DNA of 64,000 nt from an uncultured Elusimicrobia bacterium. GTDB lineage: Bacteria; Elusimicrobiota; Elusimicrobia; 2-01-FULL-59-12. Both the position numbers and the translations under genes were made by a program. Positions 4,655 through 31,751 of this stretch are shown piece by piece. Under the pieces are notes generated by a model. That model saw nothing but the letters and a program-made list of their open reading frames with translations. It ran no database searches and was not told the origin of the DNA. Position 1 is the stretch's first letter; each line of letters begins with the position of its first letter. The stretch is taken from positions 544,001 through 608,000 of the forward strand of contig OY969767.1 of NCBI GenBank assembly GCA_963702895.1. The letters run 5' to 3'.

Positions 4655-5604
4655 AACTCTTTCGCGTCATTGCGGCGAAAGCCGCCCCCCTTCCACCCGG
4701 GGGACTGTCCCGACCCATCCTTCCAAAGATACGGGACGGAATCGATGAGTTCAAAGGGTGGGGCCCGGCGTGCGCCGTGATGACGGCCATCTTTCTTTCT
4801 GCTCCTTTGGCCCACGCTTTGCCCCCTACCCTCCTGCTCTCCACCACCACCCTCCTTCCTGGCGAAACACTCCGCATCGAAGTGGATGGCGCCTCCCCCG
4901 AAGCGAGGCTTAAAGTCCGGTGGATGGGGAAACTCTTCCCATTTTATTTTGTGGGGCCCAACGCGCAGCGGGCGATCATCGGCATGAAGCTCGATACACG
5001 TCCGGGCCGCTACGACCTTGTGTTCAAGGACCAAAGAGGCGTTGTACCGGAAATCCCTGCGGCACGTGTCGAGATCGCGACCAAAGTCTTTACCACCGAA
5101 CATGTCAACTTTTCGAAGGACAAGACCGCCTTGATGAAAGCGGAACACCGGGAAAGCCAGATCATCGGGCGAGCCAAGATGTATTTATCCCGAGATCAGC
5201 AGTGGGAGGGCCCGTTTATGTACCCGGTGAGCGGTGAGAAGATTGGCGAATTCGGTTTGAAGAGAATTCGAAATGGCCATATGGACGCGGGCTTCCATAA
5301 GGGGATTGATCTTCGCGGCAGTAAAGGAACGCCGGTCCTTGCGGCCAACTCCGGCACGGTGGTGCTCGCTTCCAATTTTAAAGCCCACGGGAAAACGGTC
5401 CTGCTCAATCATGGACAAGGGGTGATGACCATCTACTTACACCTGCAATCCATCTCTGTAGACCTTCGTCAAAAAGTGCGCAAGGGACAGGAAATCGGCA
5501 AGGTGGGGTCCACGGGACTTTCAACCGCTCCCCATGTTCATTTTCAGGTGTATGTGCATGGCGTTCCCGTAGACCCTGATCAGTGGGTCAACCATGAATT
5601 CTAA
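4651..5604 (+). CDS. M23 family metallopeptidase (true start may be near 4777)
   Basis: HKGIDL, YLHL, TGLSTAPHVHF motifs; signal-peptide-like segment after ~4777. Confidence 0.88.
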   Translation: MKLFRVIAAKAAPLPPGGLSRPILPKIRDGIDEFKGWGPACAVMTAIFLSAPLAHALPPTLLLSTTTLLPGETLRIEVDGASPEARLKVRWMGKLFPFYFVGPNAQRAIIGMKLDTRPGRYDLVFKDQRGVVPEIPAARVEIATKVFTTEHVNFSKDKTALMKAEHRESQIIGRAKMYLSRDQQWEGPFMYPVSGEKIGEFGLKRIRNGHMDAGFHKGIDLRGSKGTPVLAANSGTVVLASNFKAHGKTVLLNHGQGVMTIYLHLQSISVDLRQKVRKGQEIGKVGSTGLSTAPHVHFQVYVHGVPVDPDQWVNHEF

Positions 5605-23701: not shown

Positions 23702-23706
23702 TTGGC

Positions 23707-23795
23707 CGTCATCCCCCACGGGTGTAAGTGGGGGATCCATCGTTTCTGAAGTTGAAATCGTGATAGATCCCCCGCTGACGGCCGCGGGGGATGAC
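23707..23795. repeat. CGTC-tagged palindromic element
   Basis: cgtcatccccca..tgggggatcca...agatcccccgctgacggccgcgggggatgac. Confidence 0.88.
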
Positions 23796-23820
23796 ATCAG
23801 AAAATATTTGGGAGTGAAAT

Positions 23821-25341
23821 ATGGCAATTAAGTCCGAAGAAATTACATCCGTTATTCAAAAACAACTCGAGAGCTTCGAGGGGAAGCTCGAGCTCACGGA
23901 GGTCGGCCATGTGCTGCAGGCCGGCGACGGCATCGCTCGGATCTATGGGTTGAAGAAGGCCATGGCCGGAGAACTGCTCGAGCTTCCGAACCATGTCTAT
24001 GGCATGGTGATGAATCTCGAAACGGATACGGTGGGCTGCGTTCTCTTTGGTGAGGATCACCTTATTAAGGAAGGCGATACAGTCAAGCGTACGGGCAAGG
24101 TCATGGAAGTGCCGGTGGGAGAAGCCATGATCGGCCGTGTCGTCAACCCCTTGGGCCAGCCCATCGATGGCAAGGGTTCCATCAAGACCTCCAAAACTCG
24201 TCTTGTGGAAGTGATCGCCCCTGGTATTGTGGAGCGTCAGCCGGTGAAAGAGCCGTTGCAAACGGGCCTTAAGGCGATTGACTCGATGATTCCCATTGGC
24301 CGTGGGCAGCGCGAGCTCATCATTGGCGACCGCCAGACCGGCAAGACCGCTGTGGTGGTTGACACCATCATCAACCAGAAAAGTGAAACCAGCAACAATC
24401 GACCCATTTGTATCTACGTGGCGATCGGGCAGAAACAATCCAATATCGCCCAAGTCGTGCAGAGACTCACAGATGTGGGGGCGATGGATTACACCGTTGT
24501 GGTCGCCGCGACCGCTTCAGACCCCGCGCCGCTTCAGTATCTGGCGCCCTACGCGGGATGCGCGATCGGCGAAGAGTTCATGTGGGCTGGCAAGCACGTT
24601 CTTTGTATCTATGACGACCTCTCCAAGCATGCCCAGGCCTACCGACAACTCTCACTTCTGCTTCGCCGCCCGCCCGGCCGCGAAGCCTATCCCGGCGACG
24701 TCTTCTATCTCCATTCGCGGCTCCTCGAGCGCGCCTGTAAACTCTCTGATAAGAACGGCAACGGTTCCCTCACCGCTCTGCCGATCATTGAGACCCAGGC
24801 CGGTGACGTTTCAGCCTACATTCCGACCAACGTCATCTCGATTACAGACGGCCAGATTTATCTGGAGTCCAATCTCTTCTACGCCGGCGTTCGCCCAGCC
24901 GTGAACGTCGGGTTGTCGGTTTCGCGGGTCGGCGGTTCGGCCCAGATCAAAGCGATGCGCCAGGTCGCGGGGAAGCTGCGCCTGGACCTCGCCCAATACA
25001 ATGAGCTCGCGGCTTTTGCGCAGTTCGGTTCGGACCTCGATAAGGCGTCATTGGCGCAGCTGGAACGCGGCAAGCGCATGGTCGAATTGCTCAAGCAGGA
25101 TCAATATGTGCCCATGCCCGTTGAGCAGCAGGTGGCGGTCCTTTACGCCGGGTCCAACGGCTTTGTCGATGACGTCCCGGTGGAGGCGATCCGCCGTTGG
25201 GAGGGCGAGTTCCTGGCCTTCCTCGATCGCCGCCACGCGGAGTTGCTGAAGACCGTCCGCGAAAAGAAAATCATTGATGACACGCTCAAGCCGCAGCTTG
25301 AGAGTGCGATAAAAGAATTTAAGGGAACGTTTAAAGCTTGA
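23821..25341 (+). CDS. atpA: ATP synthase F1 subunit alpha
   Basis: [29 protein letters not shown]. Confidence 0.98.
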
Positions 25342-25346
25342 AATGG

Positions 25347-25379
25347 TGTCACCCCGGCGGATAGTGGGCCGGGATGACG
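25347..25379. repeat. Short CGTC-family hairpin
   Basis: gtcaccccggc...gccgggatgac. Confidence 0.75.
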
Positions 25380-25392
25380 CCAAAGGCAAATA

Positions 25393-25425
25393 ATGGCCTC
25401 GCTATGCGAAATCCGGCAGATCATT
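25393..25425 (+). pseudogene. Decayed duplicate of the atpG 5' end
   Basis: atggcctcgctatgcgaaatccggcagatcatt versus atpG atgccttccttgcgcgaaatccggcggaagata. Confidence 0.75.
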
Positions 25426-25429
25426 GGTC

Positions 25430-26032
25430 ATGGTTGACAGACAGACTCATCCAAAGCTCTATGTGATCGCCGGGCCCAATGGCGCGGGCAAGACAACCTT
25501 CGCGAGGGAATATTTGCCCCGGTTTGCGAAGTGTGACGAGTTTGTAAATAGTGATTTGATTGCCGTAGGAATTGCTCCTTTTGATCCAAGGTCAGCAGCC
25601 CTTGAGGCGGGTCGGATTATGGTCAGTCGGCTGCGTCACTTGGCAGAACAGAACGAAACGTTCGCTTTTGAGACAACCCTCTCGGGGACCAGTCATGTGC
25701 GGCTGCTGAAGCAGGCCAAACGGTCGGGTTTTAGGGTTACCTTGATGTATCTGTGGCTGCCCCATGTCGGGCTGGCCCTTCGCCGCGTGTGGGAGCGCGT
25801 GCAAAGTGGGGGGCATGCTGTACCGGAAGTCGATGTGCGGCGGCGGTTTGGGAGGAGTCTTTGGAATTTGTTTCATGTCTATAAGGCCATGGCAGATGAG
25901 CTCGTTGTGTTTGATAACGCAGGGCGTGTGCCGCATCTCGTAGCACATTCCTCCAGCGGTCGGTTGAAAGTGTGGGATCTTGAGCGCTGGGGCCACATTC
26001 AAGAAGGGATGGAGCTTCACCATGAAAGATAA
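25430..26032 (+). CDS. Zeta-toxin-like / AAA P-loop protein
   Basis: IAGPNGAGKTT, FVNSDLIA, FAFETTLSG, RV..GGH.VP, FDN. Confidence 0.85.
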   Translation: MVDRQTHPKLYVIAGPNGAGKTTFAREYLPRFAKCDEFVNSDLIAVGIAPFDPRSAALEAGRIMVSRLRHLAEQNETFAFETTLSGTSHVRLLKQAKRSGFRVTLMYLWLPHVGLALRRVWERVQSGGHAVPEVDVRRRFGRSLWNLFHVYKAMADELVVFDNAGRVPHLVAHSSSGRLKVWDLERWGHIQEGMELHHER

Positions 26033-26207
26033 GCCGAACAGGTTGGTGCAGGACGCTTTCAAAGCGCTCAAAATCGCGGTTGGACGTGCGCTGGCAGACC
26101 ACGCGCGCCTCGGCCATTCCGTTTATGTTTGGGAAGGCGGCAAGGTCGTGCGCATCTCTGCGGCGCGCCATCCGGCACGAAAAGCCCATCACCGGAAGGC
26201 GGCCTAG
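26022..26207 (+). CDS. Small partner protein of the P-loop gene (putative antitoxin)
   Basis: 61 aa, A..H...GHSVYVWEGGKVV; overlaps the upstream stop. Confidence 0.65.
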   Translation: MKDKPNRLVQDAFKALKIAVGRALADHARLGHSVYVWEGGKVVRISAARHPARKAHHRKAA

Positions 26208-26288
26208 TGGCATCCCTTTGCGCGCACCACTGGGGCATCGGCGGGTGTCCGCCGCGATGCAGTGGCGGACGAAATCAGGCGGAACCTA
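26207..26288 (+). pseudogene. Decayed atpG 5' duplicate interrupted by a 49-bp palindromic insert (26222-26270)
   Basis: gtggcatccctttgc[49 bp]gaaatcaggcggaac. Confidence 0.75.
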
Positions 26289-26304
26289 TGAGAGGTCTAG
26301 ACCA

Positions 26305-26640
26305 ATGATTCCCGCACTTAAGAGCAATGAAGAAATGGCTGTAAAAGAGTTGCGAGAGCGCTTGCGGGCTCTCTATGGGTCTCGTCTAAGGCAAACGATT
26401 CTCTATGGCAGCAAAGCCAGAGGTGATTCTGAGGAGGGCTCCGACATCGATGTGTTGGCGGTGATTGATAATCTGCCAGATCATCGAGCGGCTCGAAACC
26501 AGATTCTTCATGAGACAACGCCCATTGATCTGCGCCATGATGTGTTTTTGAGCGTTTTTGCTGTTGACTCTGATTATTTCAGGATGGCGGGAAAGGTCCC
26601 ATTTTACGCCAATGTGAAAGCGGAAGGGATTTCTTTATGA
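26305..26640 (+). CDS. Minimal nucleotidyltransferase (MNT antitoxin)
   Basis: LYGSKARGD...SDIDVL. Confidence 0.88.
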   Translation: MIPALKSNEEMAVKELRERLRALYGSRLRQTILYGSKARGDSEEGSDIDVLAVIDNLPDHRAARNQILHETTPIDLRHDVFLSVFAVDSDYFRMAGKVPFYANVKAEGISL

Positions 26641-27044
26641 CACCTCCCTCCGTTCCAGAGCAAATTATGGATCTTTGGAAAAAAGCGAATGAGAGCCTGG
26701 ATGCCGCGGCTGAGTTGTTGGAGAAGGGGCATGAAGAGTTTTCTGTGTCACGATCCTATTACGCCATGTTTTATGTGACGGAAGCGGTCCTAATGACGAA
26801 AGGACTCGCTTATGCCAAGCATAGCGCTGTCATTGCAACATTTGGGAAGCATTTCATTAAGACAGGTATTTTTGGAGCGGAATTGCGCGAGATGCTGGTC
26901 AAAGCTTTTGAGGATCGGACGGAAGGGGATTATGGAATGACCAATACGTTTTCGCCCGAAGAAGCGAAAGCCATTCTTCTTCGTGCAAAGGAGTTTTGTC
27001 AAACTCTAAGCCAATATCTACGAAAGTCAGGGCATATTCACTAA
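26637..27044 (+). CDS. HEPN domain protein
   Basis: SRSYYAMFY, KHSAVI..FG..F, R..GDY; ATGA overlap with MNT. Confidence 0.88.
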   Translation: MTPPSVPEQIMDLWKKANESLDAAAELLEKGHEEFSVSRSYYAMFYVTEAVLMTKGLAYAKHSAVIATFGKHFIKTGIFGAELREMLVKAFEDRTEGDYGMTNTFSPEEAKAILLRAKEFCQTLSQYLRKSGHIH

Positions 27045-27131
27045 TGGTGTCCCTTCGCGCCCACCACTGGGGCGCCGGCGGGCGTCCTCCGCGTTGCAGT
27101 GGCGGACGAAATCAGGAGGAAGATTAATTCC
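27044..27131 (+). pseudogene. Decayed atpG 5' duplicate interrupted by a 49-bp palindromic insert (27059-27107)
   Basis: atggtgtcccttcgc[49 bp]gaaatcaggaggaagattaattcc encodes MVSLR|EIRRKINS versus atpG MPSLREIRRKIKS. Confidence 0.85.
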
Positions 27132-27167
27132 ACTCTGAGATCCTATGAGTTTGGAGAGGAGATAACG

Positions 27168-27581
27168 ATGATTAAAAAGATGTCTCGTATCATTCAAGTC
27201 AAGGTGGCACTTCCTTTGTGCTTGTGCATATTCTTTTCTTCGGGGTGTACGCATTTTTCACCCATAGCCGTTTCGACGAGTTCGGTTAATCCTGAGCGTG
27301 AGATCGTCTTGGGCACCGCTCGAGGTAAGGCCACGAACATCTATTTCCTAGGGATGATTGATAGTAGCCGGATGGGGATGAAGGAAGCTATGGACGATGC
27401 TAAACGTCAGGTGGGGGCGGATAATCTGCTTAATGTGTATGTTGACCAGAAAACTACCTATTACCCTTTCATCCTGCTTCCGTTACTGGTCAAAAGTGAA
27501 ACATTTGTCACGGGTACAGCCATCCAATATAAGGACCGTTCATGGATAAAGCCCGAGCCAGCGGCTGGTAAAAAAGAATAA
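27168..27581 (+). CDS. Putative lipoprotein (TRL-like)
   Basis: SD aggag; lipobox-like SSGC; A.DA...GAD.LLNV.VD, T.VTGTAI. Confidence 0.65.
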   Translation: MIKKMSRIIQVKVALPLCLCIFFSSGCTHFSPIAVSTSSVNPEREIVLGTARGKATNIYFLGMIDSSRMGMKEAMDDAKRQVGADNLLNVYVDQKTTYYPFILLPLLVKSETFVTGTAIQYKDRSWIKPEPAAGKKE

Positions 27582-28555
27582 TGCCTTCCTTGCGCGAAAT
27601 CCGGCGGAAGATAAAGTCCGTCAAATCAACTCAGCAGATCACCAAAGCTATGAAGATGGTGGCAGCGGCGCGGCTGCGCAAGGCGCAGGCGCGTATCCTT
27701 TCGGCGCGGCCGTTTGCCCAGAAGATGGAAGAGTTTATGACGGATCTCTTGGTCAGAATTGAGGGGGAAGAGACCCATCCGCTCTTTGTCCGGCGGCAGG
27801 GGGCGCGCCGGGTGCTCCTTCTCGTCACGGCCGACAAGGGGCTCTGTGGCGCCTTCAATACGAACCTGATTCGCGAGGCGACCAAATATTTGACCAAGTA
27901 TGGCGCGCCAAATGTGGATCTCTATGTGGTGGGGCGTAAGGGCCGGGACTTCTTCCGACGTATGGGCTGTCACATCAGCAAAGAATACCTCAACATGTTC
28001 AACGCGTTGAATTTTGCCCATGCGGAGTTGATTACACAGGATTTACTGAAAGCCTACGTGCCCTCACCCAACCTCTCCCATCCTTCGGCTGGGAGAGGGG
28101 CAGCAGCAGAGCCCCCTCGCCCGCCGCAGGTGGGAGAGAGAGAGCCCGACGCTACGCGGAGAGGCGAGGGTGAGGGCAAAAACATTGTCGCAGTCGATAT
28201 GCTTTACAACGAATTTAAGTCGGTGATTCAGCAGCGCTTGATGGTCAAAACGCTCTTGCCGTTAACGCCCATCGATGAGGTCGAGGTCCAAGAATTTCCT
28301 GATTTTATTTACGAGCCCGACAAAAAAGTCCTTTTCGAGGCCATCATCAGCCGCTATTTGAAGTCCCAGGTCTTTCGTGTGTTGCTCGAGTCGGGCGCCG
28401 CGGAACTCGGCGCGCGCATGGCGGCCATGGATAACGCTACCCGCAACGCCAAGGAACTGATGGAGTCGCTCACGCTTTCCATGAACCGGACGCGGCAGAG
28501 CTCCATCACCAAAGAGATTCTGGAAGTGGTCAGCGGCGCGGAAGCCCTCAAATGA
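27581..28555 (+). CDS. atpG: ATP synthase F1 subunit gamma with a ~40-aa repeat-derived insertion
   Basis: ITKAMKMVAAA, DKGLCGAFN, ARMAAM..AT.NA, RQ..IT.E. Confidence 0.97.
   Translation: MPSLREIRRKIKSVKSTQQITKAMKMVAAARLRKAQARILSARPFAQKMEEFMTDLLVRIEGEETHPLFVRRQGARRVLLLVTADKGLCGAFNTNLIREATKYLTKYGAPNVDLYVVGRKGRDFFRRMGCHISKEYLNMFNALNFAHAELITQDLLKAYVPSPNLSHPSAGRGAAAEPPRPPQVGEREPDATRRGEGEGKNIVAVDMLYNEFKSVIQQRLMVKTLLPLTPIDEVEVQEFPDFIYEPDKKVLFEAIISRYLKSQVFRVLLESGAAELGARMAAMDNATRNAKELMESLTLSMNRTRQSSITKEILEVVSGAEALK
28059..28178. repeat. CCCTCACCC palindromic element in-frame in atpG (120 bp)
   Basis: Terminal IR tgccctcaccc / gggtgagggca; internal cctctccca..tgggagagg. Confidence 0.9.
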
Positions 28556-28559
28556 GGAC

Positions 28560-28640
28560 CGTCCGAGGTCCGACGTCCGACGCCAGGATTTCCGCGACTT
28601 TTCATAAAATGCCGCGACGTCGGACGTCGCACGTCGGACG
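28560..28640. repeat. Heptamer inverted-repeat element (CGTCCGA family)
   Basis: Arms identical to the mnmA copy at 142-235; spacer differs. Confidence 0.9.
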
Positions 28641-28649
28641 ATCAACTCA

Positions 28650-30478
<1,829 letters not shown>

Positions 30479-30493
30479 AGACTTTCCAGAGAC

Positions 30494-30590
30494 ACCTTCT
30501 CCCGCTGTAAAGCGGGAGAAGGTTGGGATGAGGGCACAATACATGACGTGCCCTCACCCTAGCCCTCTCCCGCCGATCGGCGGGAGAGGG
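30494..30590. repeat. CCCTCACCC/CCCTCTCCC palindromic element, inverted pair
   Basis: accttctcccgct..agcgggagaaggt; gggatgagggcac..gtgccctcaccct; ccctctcccgccgatcggcgggagaggg. Confidence 0.9.
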
Positions 30591-30601
30591 AAGAGAGGGC
30601 C

Positions 30602-31038: not shown

Positions 31039-31533
31039 ATGATATACCTTGAACTATTCCGCGCATTGGAACGACAGAACATCCAATACGTGGTCGTTGG
31101 CGGGCTGGCGGTCATCTTCCATGGATTCGCGCGGATGTCTATGGATTTGGATCTCGCCGTTTCTCTGGAATCTCAGAACCTCAGACAGTTTGTTGATCTG
31201 GCAGAGCACCTCGGCTACCGACCTAAACTCCCCGTATCGTTCCGGGACTTACTCGACAAAAATAAGCGAAAAGAATGGGCTGAACAGAAGCATATGTTGG
31301 TTTTTTCTCTTTATCATCAAGAACGCCCTCAAGAGCTGGTCGATGTATTCATCCATGACCTGATTCCATTTCACGAGCTGTTCAAGAGGCATGTCCGCAT
31401 TCCTTTGGGCGAAGACATTGTGCGCGTGGCTTCAATTGAAGACTTAAAGACGATGAAGCGGATGGCGGGCCGACCTCAAGACCTGCAGGATATTGCGGCG
31501 CTGGAAAATCTCGAAAAGAAGAAATTGACGTGA
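31039..31533 (+). CDS. Nucleotidyltransferase-fold protein (toxin-antitoxin-type)
   Basis: YVVVGGLAV..HG..R...DLD; K..AGRPQDLQDI. Confidence 0.75.
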   Translation: MIYLELFRALERQNIQYVVVGGLAVIFHGFARMSMDLDLAVSLESQNLRQFVDLAEHLGYRPKLPVSFRDLLDKNKRKEWAEQKHMLVFSLYHQERPQELVDVFIHDLIPFHELFKRHVRIPLGEDIVRVASIEDLKTMKRMAGRPQDLQDIAALENLEKKKLT

Positions 31534-31751
31534 AGGTATACCCGTATCCTGAGCCTATTCGTGTACTCCAGATTTATTCACCTGAGGCCCAGGCTCAGTG
31601 GGTCCATACGACGCCGCTGGAGCGCCTTAAATGGTTAGATTTTGCATTGCAGGCGGCCTGGGCCGGGGCTGCTTATCGTACGAAAGACTTCAACCTTGCG
31701 TGTCTCCCACGCGTCGGCAAAATCACCCGTCGCCAAAGAAGACGTTCATAG
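31530..31751 (+). CDS. Small hypothetical partner protein
   Basis: GTGA overlap with the upstream gene; TPLERLKWL motif. Confidence 0.5.
   Translation: MKVYPYPEPIRVLQIYSPEAQAQWVHTTPLERLKWLDFALQAAWAGAAYRTKDFNLACLPRVGKITRRQRRRS

Follow-up and report, generated by a model that had tools for sequence, protein, structure and literature searches.

How do small toxin–antitoxin (TA)-like and membrane genes, which are often found wedged into the core operons of uncultured bacteria without any mobility gene, come to be there? The question is raised by a stretch of 64,000 nt, here called the window, from an uncultured Elusimicrobia bacterium of the GTDB lineage 2-01-FULL-59-12 (assembly GCA_963702895.1, contig OY969767.1, positions 544,001 to 608,000), in which the ATP synthase genes atpA and atpG are separated by three unrelated gene modules. 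A first, sequence-only reading of the window proposed that each module is preceded by a degenerate copy of the start of atpG, and that this start has served as a repeated insertion point. We have compared this interval with the remainder of the 2.72-Mb genome (G000, a single contig), with relatives and with metagenomes. The presence of three decayed atpG-start copies (termed stubs), each ahead of one cargo module, is confirmed, and on balance we favour reading the interval as a series of recombination scars anchored in a conserved gene end, formed without a site-specific enzyme and filtered by essentiality. The features of the interval are as follows (positions are those of the window).

23821..25341, + strand: atpA, the upstream flank; open reading frame (ORF) of 506 aa, named from its sequence and operon order.
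25343..25393, + strand: dispersed hairpin repeat; it contains a mini-ORF of 16 codons with a stop overlapping the stub 1 ATG.
25393..25437, + strand: stub 1, atpG codons 1-9; a 14-codon mini-ORF with an 8-nt overlap with the zeta-like start.
25430..26032, + strand: zeta-like P-loop protein, 200 aa (Pfam Zeta_toxin, E 1e-8; AAA_33, E 6e-7).
26022..26207, + strand: small basic partner, 61 aa, a putative antitoxin.
26207..26308, + strand: stub 2, atpG codons 1-10, interrupted by a 49-nt palindrome at 26221-26269.
26305..26640, + strand: minimal nucleotidyltransferase (MNT), 111 aa (Pfam NTP_transf_2; PADLOC PDC-S09, E 2e-24).
26637..27044, + strand: HEPN protein, 135 aa (Pfam HEPN, E 1e-19).
27044..27131, + strand: stub 3, atpG codons 1-13, with the same palindrome at the same position, 27058-27106.
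27168..27581, + strand: putative lipoprotein, 137 aa, with its own Shine-Dalgarno-like site; its stop overlaps the atpG start.
27581..28555, + strand: atpG (F1 gamma subunit; Pfam ATP-synt).

When aligned with the start of atpG, stub 1 is identical at 20/27 nt, stub 2 at 22/30 nt and stub 3 at 30/39 nt, the latter two with the 49-nt insert skipped. Taken with the four bases before its ATG, stub 1 matches at 24/31 positions and is the top non-self match on both strands of the genome. None of 1000 dinucleotide shuffles of the interval yielded an ungapped 27-mer as good, none of 1000 yielded three start-anchored split matches as good, and a third-best score as high was found in one of 2434 equal-sized genome windows. 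Single stubs are weaker, the best score of 21 being reached in 41/1000 shuffles and 118/2434 windows; the set lies far beyond chance, although single scores of this size are common. The claim that each of the three modules is preceded by a degenerate atpG start is therefore upheld. A fourth stub, suspected at 25343, was rejected as a copy of atpG: the sequence is the left arm of a hairpin (25344-25358 / 25368-25382) belonging to a dispersed family found at ~20 genomic places.

Nine genomes of the family, G000 included, have both flanks of the junction on one contig and were scored; G001 and G003 (drafts 73% and 89% complete) were left out because their atpA end was not found. The atpA-atpG gap is filled in four of the nine (G000, G002, G005 and G008), with different cargo in each (the relatives' cargo was labelled by eye), and empty in the other five, where it measures -1 to 107 nt. 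Both flanks are also present on five close metagenome contigs, of which L055 and L058 are filled and the remaining three empty (L054 is a repeat of L055 and was not counted). The stubs of G000, G002, G005 and L055 exceed all 60 shuffles, i.e. stubs are significant in three of the four filled family genomes, and their lengths across arrays range from 9 to >30 codons. The G005 gap also holds a copy of the last atpA codons, joined to one of the cargo genes, that scores 42 where shuffles reach at most 34, and L058 shows a possible atpA-end match (30 vs 25). This comparison bears out the proposal that the start of atpG has repeatedly received insertions and that their cargo varies.

Ten genomes of other families, with gaps of 920-2775 nt, have no stub above shuffles; in most of these long gaps an epimerase-like gene (labelled by eye) lies between atpA and atpG, and in several other families (L040-L050) such a gene is fixed there. 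The metagenome search gave 80 loci, 74 of them scorable, comprising 59 short gaps, 3 long gaps and 12 loci without atpA. A survey of 401 genomes of the phylum with atpG codons 1-45 as query matched 362, five of them more than once. One of these, G005, is a true stub; G285 was rejected as a contig break plus second copy, G257 as a second operon and G348 as a weak match that was not confirmed, and the two matches in G338 are at the ends of contigs. The survey brought no additional long fresh stub to light; as it misses G000's own stubs, it demonstrates only the rarity of long fresh stubs outside the family. We also observed that L055 and L058 carry a related small cysteine-containing exported protein (TIMP-like by eye) directly before atpG, the stub making up its N-terminus in L058, and that the C-terminus of a G008 cargo protein (L036, oriented position 5329) resembles atpG codons 3-10, possibly another absorbed stub.

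The stubs were said at the outset to differ from atpG in part at synonymous positions, as if derived from other alleles. In G000 taken by itself, the changed codons are not mainly synonymous (synonymous/non-synonymous 2/3, 2/4 and 4/2 for stubs 1, 2 and 3). The argument for different alleles draws its weight from the relatives, in which the comparison of three fresh stubs (of 25, 24 and 31 codons) with the atpG of the same genome yields 39 synonymous codon differences and one non-synonymous difference (8/0, 16/0 and 15/1 per stub; neutral synonymous share 0.22, p 5e-25). Near-exclusively synonymous differences indicate that both copies evolved as working genes and met later, and the conclusion that stub and working start are different alleles in the relatives is thus supported. 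The two are 75-88% identical, in the range of the working alleles of different genera (50-64 of 75 to G000), and the G005 stub is nearer to the atpG of other lineages (64/72) than to its own (54/72). The atpG-proximal stub has the highest identity in all four multi-stub arrays (~1 in 24 by chance, calculated by hand); the array seems to grow at its atpG end. It had also been suggested that each incoming unit brings a fresh start and strands the old one. The 39:1 ratio bears out the part of this that requires two alleles; which copy is resident is weakly shown. G+C content at third codon positions (GC3) favours the stub as resident in G005 (0.77 vs 0.36) and G002 (0.61 vs 0.35) and does not do so in L055; as proof of a foreign start it is weakened by the controls described below.

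The stubs are also arranged in a manner that bears on translation. From atpA to atpG, nine of ten junctions are coupled, the next start lying within a range from 11 nt upstream to 1 nt downstream of the preceding stop, and three of the nine exit from mini-ORFs, namely the 16-codon hairpin ORF, stub 1 and stub 2. The 33-codon mini-ORF of stub 2 begins at the stop of the partner gene and runs to the start of the MNT gene; stub 3, of 27 codons, is entered from the HEPN stop and ends 40 nt 5' of the lipoprotein gene. Ten stubs across the arrays have a start codon (G005 stub 1, whose start is lost, was excluded), and nine of these overlap or fuse in frame with the next start, where 3.8 would be expected (p 5e-4, on a crude null). 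We infer from this arrangement that stubs persist as mini-ORFs or N-terminal fusions relaying ribosomes from atpA through the cargo to atpG, a role for which ORF-11 of integrons offers a tested precedent (PMC8876359).

Gene-end copies were then sought throughout G000, using our own calls of 2352 genes, of which the 2021 of 300 nt or more were scanned. The scan was ungapped, and so misses stubs split by an insert, and it excluded duplications >150 nt, dispersed repeats, matches that scored <17 and targets falling within a called gene. What remained were seven copies of 3' ends, all short, unique and intergenic and each lying downstream of the gene it copies, against none in each of four control geometries, one of the seven being an 82-nt tandem without cargo. 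Copies of 5' ends upstream numbered two, atpG itself and a repeat at the start of a giant gene; the ungapped scan gave no other convincing 5' stub in G000. At the 3' ends, G000 holds at least six cargo islets with mirror-image gene-end duplications. The eight islets examined (L131-L138; six from the scan list and two added by eye) are 0.8-4 kb long, with a copy of the 3' end of the host gene as their downstream boundary. The stop is kept at the same place in the copy in seven of the eight, and the codon differences total 25 synonymous and 17 non-synonymous. The 18 islet proteins scanned include DUF433/DUF5615, Fic, AAA_14-DUF4143, a two-component pair, a DDE transposase and a reverse transcriptase, with no recombinase among them. 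The site of the islet at the ABC-F gene is seen empty in G008.

We propose that the arrays arise in the following way. DNA of a related bacterium, with cargo just upstream of the donor atpG start, would enter the cell, probably by natural transformation; G000 has the uptake genes comEC (E 3e-48) and dprA (E 5e-77), which, being common genes, lend weak support. Recombination through the conserved first 10-35 atpG codons would then follow without a site-specific enzyme, either by a single crossover of a recircularized fragment or by a homologous crossover in atpG combined with an illegitimate or short-homology join upstream. The outcome, though not the route, is what is seen in the arrays: of two atpG starts, one leads the working gene and one has been left stranded ahead of the cargo. 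In the empty state atpA and atpG abut or overlap, and as the cell needs both, only events sparing both would survive, which would account for the scars being gene ends. The next event would again hit the working start, in keeping with the observed pattern, so that the array would grow beside atpG while older stubs decay and gather hairpin repeats, and those that persist would pass ribosomes along the cargo genes as far as atpG. Acting on the 3' ends of genes, this process would also account for the integrase-free islets elsewhere in G000.

Several observations weigh against this explanation or against parts of it. The stubs of G008 and L058 are not above shuffles and, like L055 stub 1, were identified by eye only; when stubs found by eye are removed, coupling stands at 5/6 (p about 0.01, by hand), and the third cargo gene of L055 has no stub at all. 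An identity of 75-88% between alleles is low for RecA, and the G000 stubs are too decayed for an allele signal. As regards polarity, the G000 stubs are nearly equal in identity (74, 73 and 77%), and G008 is not ordered by non-synonymous changes. The GC3 test is weak, in that the cargo-free genomes G004 and G006 show similar 5' dips and the starts of atpA and atpD drop by up to 0.34, compared with 0.37 for G005 atpG. Cargo homologues also occur at other junctions without a flanking stub: homologues of the zeta pair lie between two glycine-cleavage genes in G005 and G007, and an MNT-HEPN homologue lies before lepA in G004 (labels by eye). The first arrival of cargo before atpG therefore needs another route. 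No donor sequence was found in searches of contigs and of family homologues; the contig search gave one 51% homologue of the zeta-like gene and none of the lipoprotein.

A further difficulty is that the insert of stubs 2 and 3 is one and the same and sits at the same place in both, a coincidence not explained by two independent strandings of working starts. The two stubs are 86% identical over 81 nt; the insert is identical at 43/49 positions and the sequence after it at 13/14, so that they are more alike in insert and tail (56/63) than in their first 14 nt (10/14). One must therefore derive from the other, or both from a common donor stub. Because simple stranding leaves the shared insert unexplained, it motivates a second reading, in which the cassettes seed themselves, again without an enzyme: stub and working start form a direct repeat, so that a unit of start copy plus cargo would be mobile. 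Such a unit could leave by popping out, or could pair at its two ends with the atpG start of a recipient, and could be added in other species and genera; the dead start would serve as both recombination site and ribosome relay, and the hairpins plugging the stubs would mark where crossovers stopped. The likeness of stubs 2 and 3 in insert and tail is consistent with this, as are the G002 stub, which is pristine to codon 25, has a 48-nt hairpin at codon 26 and a decayed tail beyond, and the low-GC3 patch of G005 atpG, which ends near codon 22, about where the G005 stub ends. We regard this reading as a tentative one, with perhaps a minority chance of being correct.

It is unlikely that the hairpins themselves drive the mobility. 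On that view, a HUH/Y1-like nuclease would act on them in trans, they would either cause the atpG start to be opened or transport the cargo, and stubs would arise as by-products of repair. Hairpins do interrupt or end G000 stubs 2 and 3 and the stubs of G002 and G005 (the tail after the G005 hairpin is ambiguous, at 14-15 of 24), the 49-nt inserts belong to a palindrome family with 43 pattern matches in G000, and hairpin repeats recur at the atpH/A, atpG/pilZ and atpD/C junctions. However, the plugs lie inside atpG-derived sequence and not at cargo ends, their sequence and position vary between genomes, and neither L055 stub 2 nor G000 stub 1 has a clear one; G000 holds only one weak Y1_Tnp fragment (an 89-aa frame, E 1e-4), and the two diverged alleles would be left unexplained. 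The repeats at the other atp junctions (23702-23800, 28556-28650 and 30480-30600) have ~79, 47 and 54 related genomic places, respectively. Rfam gave no relevant family at the junctions, an attC-specific model not having been applied.

Accretion by an integrase is rather improbable. Under this explanation, CIME-like elements that integrated site-specifically at the atpG 5' end, restoring it, have since lost their integrase, or an integrase serves them in trans. Integrative mobilizable elements (IMEs) restore target ends, rarely 5' ones, and decay to tandemly accreting cis-mobilizable elements (CIMEs; PMC5704250); one 3' stub is identical at 63/64 positions, and G000 has matches to four tyrosine and two serine recombinases. 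The tyrosine recombinases are, however, XerC, XerD and two weak matches among phage-like genes, and no integron integrase was found in G000, the best score to TIGR02249 being 146 against a cut-off of 265 bits; to that extent the absence of an integrase noted for the window is supported. No cognate integrase or remnant was seen in the filled atp intervals (a small sample; ORFs of relatives inspected by eye), and the recombinase-free islets, the variable stub lengths and the many unrelated target genes also argue against this mechanism.

It is very doubtful that the resident start was duplicated locally, in tandem or as a target site, and that the cargo was inserted in separate events. Such a duplication would explain the sister stubs 2 and 3 and the lineage-typical D6 and N16 common to the G005 stub and working start, and in G004 a homologue of the lipoprotein (L157:1294-2080) does lie between two perfect ~160-nt direct repeats, either a recent duplication or an assembly artefact. 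A neutral copy cannot, however, accumulate 39 synonymous changes against one non-synonymous change, and the similarity begins at a start codon or ends at a stop codon; local duplication is thereby refuted for the three fresh stubs and could apply only to the stub 2/3 pair. Misassembly or chimerism can hardly be the answer, for although two read runs gave short cargo pieces only and bridged no module junction, the stubs have diverged rather than being identical, assemblies made independently show this design with other cargo, the relay of reading frames is unbroken and the genome is one contig.

The sequence-only reading knew of no named system of this design, and on this point it has to be revised, as related arrangements have been described. 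In the sequential displacement arrays of type VI secretion system (T6SS), Rhs and contact-dependent inhibition (CDI) loci (Kirchberger et al., 2017; PMC5361080), growth is additive and without an integrase; it is proposed to combine homologous anchoring at one end with an illegitimate join at the opposite end, with Vibrio T6SS arrays growing by repeated homology-facilitated illegitimate recombination (HFIR), and older parts are pushed off the anchor and stay as truncated remnants, an arrangement that the authors liken to integrons. The atp array shares the polarity, albeit by a small margin in G000. It differs in that its anchor, which lies downstream of the cargo, is the 5' end of a housekeeping gene with an essential function, in that the cargo (TA-like and membrane genes) is unrelated to the anchor, in that atpG is whole and nothing resident is lost, and in that the remnants keep reading-frame coupling. 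A one-anchor experiment in Escherichia coli (Amarir-Bouhram et al., 2011; PMC3240628) gave a partial-duplication product in 56/60 clones, 14 of which were sequenced (109-950 bp), ascribed to a single crossover of a recircularized fragment; four clones were products of HFIR, whose joins mostly have 3-10 bp of microhomology and which in its classical form usually deletes ~1 kb. The atp insert is likewise flanked by a partial anchor duplication with no dedicated enzyme and, in the relatives though not in G000, by an anchor from a second allele. Unlike that plasmid system with its identical homology, the atp arrays involve alleles of 75-88% identity and stubs of 27-100 bp, with no visible deletion.

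Other resemblances are more partial. Like CIMEs and IMEs that have accreted (PMC5704250), the array has tandem cargo separated by copies of the target end, with the target restored and the integrase possibly lacking; unlike CIMEs, which derive from an integrase acting at a fixed att site, it has no constant core, given the stub lengths and the atpA 3' stub of G005. With integrons (PMC8876359), it shares promoter-less cargo, presumably read from a host promoter, and a short-ORF relay at junctions. The description of the array as integron-like nevertheless fails: there is no IntI and no fixed recombination site, and the separators are dead gene starts. The hairpins lie inside the stubs. Minimal mobile elements are replacements through both flanks and are not known to leave a duplicated gene start, whereas the atp arrays are additive. 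In Neisseria, minimal mobile elements resemble the atp arrays in that small cargo varies at a single syntenic position flanked by conserved genes (PMC1797815). The literature search, incomplete in its coverage, turned up no report of arrays of duplicated starts within an atp operon. The chemistry is probably that of ordinary recombination, and the arrays a variant of known recombination scars with no new enzyme system.

As to the cargo itself and the neighbouring genes, the 61-aa partner of the zeta-like gene has no family match in Pfam or NCBIfam and is also found 3' of the zeta homologue in G005 and G007. The MNT and HEPN genes are adjacent, as in type VII MNT-HEPN TA systems, and may form a pair of this kind; PDC-S09 on the MNT was the sole strong PADLOC match, and the MNT scores 23 bits against the MntA model, under its cut-off of 60. 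The lipoprotein belongs to no Pfam or NCBIfam family, a resemblance to TRL-like / DUF6567 proteins (Atlas score 0.93) being a lead only. The upstream flank, atpA, is 69-88% identical to the same-place genes of relatives. Near 28058-28185, atpG carries an in-frame hairpin repeat of ~38 extra codons with ~20 related genomic places, residues 161-200 of its product being missing in relatives; G011 atpG seemingly has other in-frame inserts. A PilZ-domain gene (28650-29042) between atpG and atpD is found in most family members and is therefore fixed and not array cargo. Directly 3' of atpC lie a DUF6036 nucleotidyltransferase gene and a small partner (31039-31751), at which no copy of the atpC end was found.

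These arrays provide a readable record of how cargo can enter core operons through the conserved ends of essential genes. They point to exchange between alleles about as distant as genera, and to scars that may be reused for the coupling of translation. Gene-end copies with synonymous-only differences would furthermore constitute a searchable signature of integrase-free transfer.

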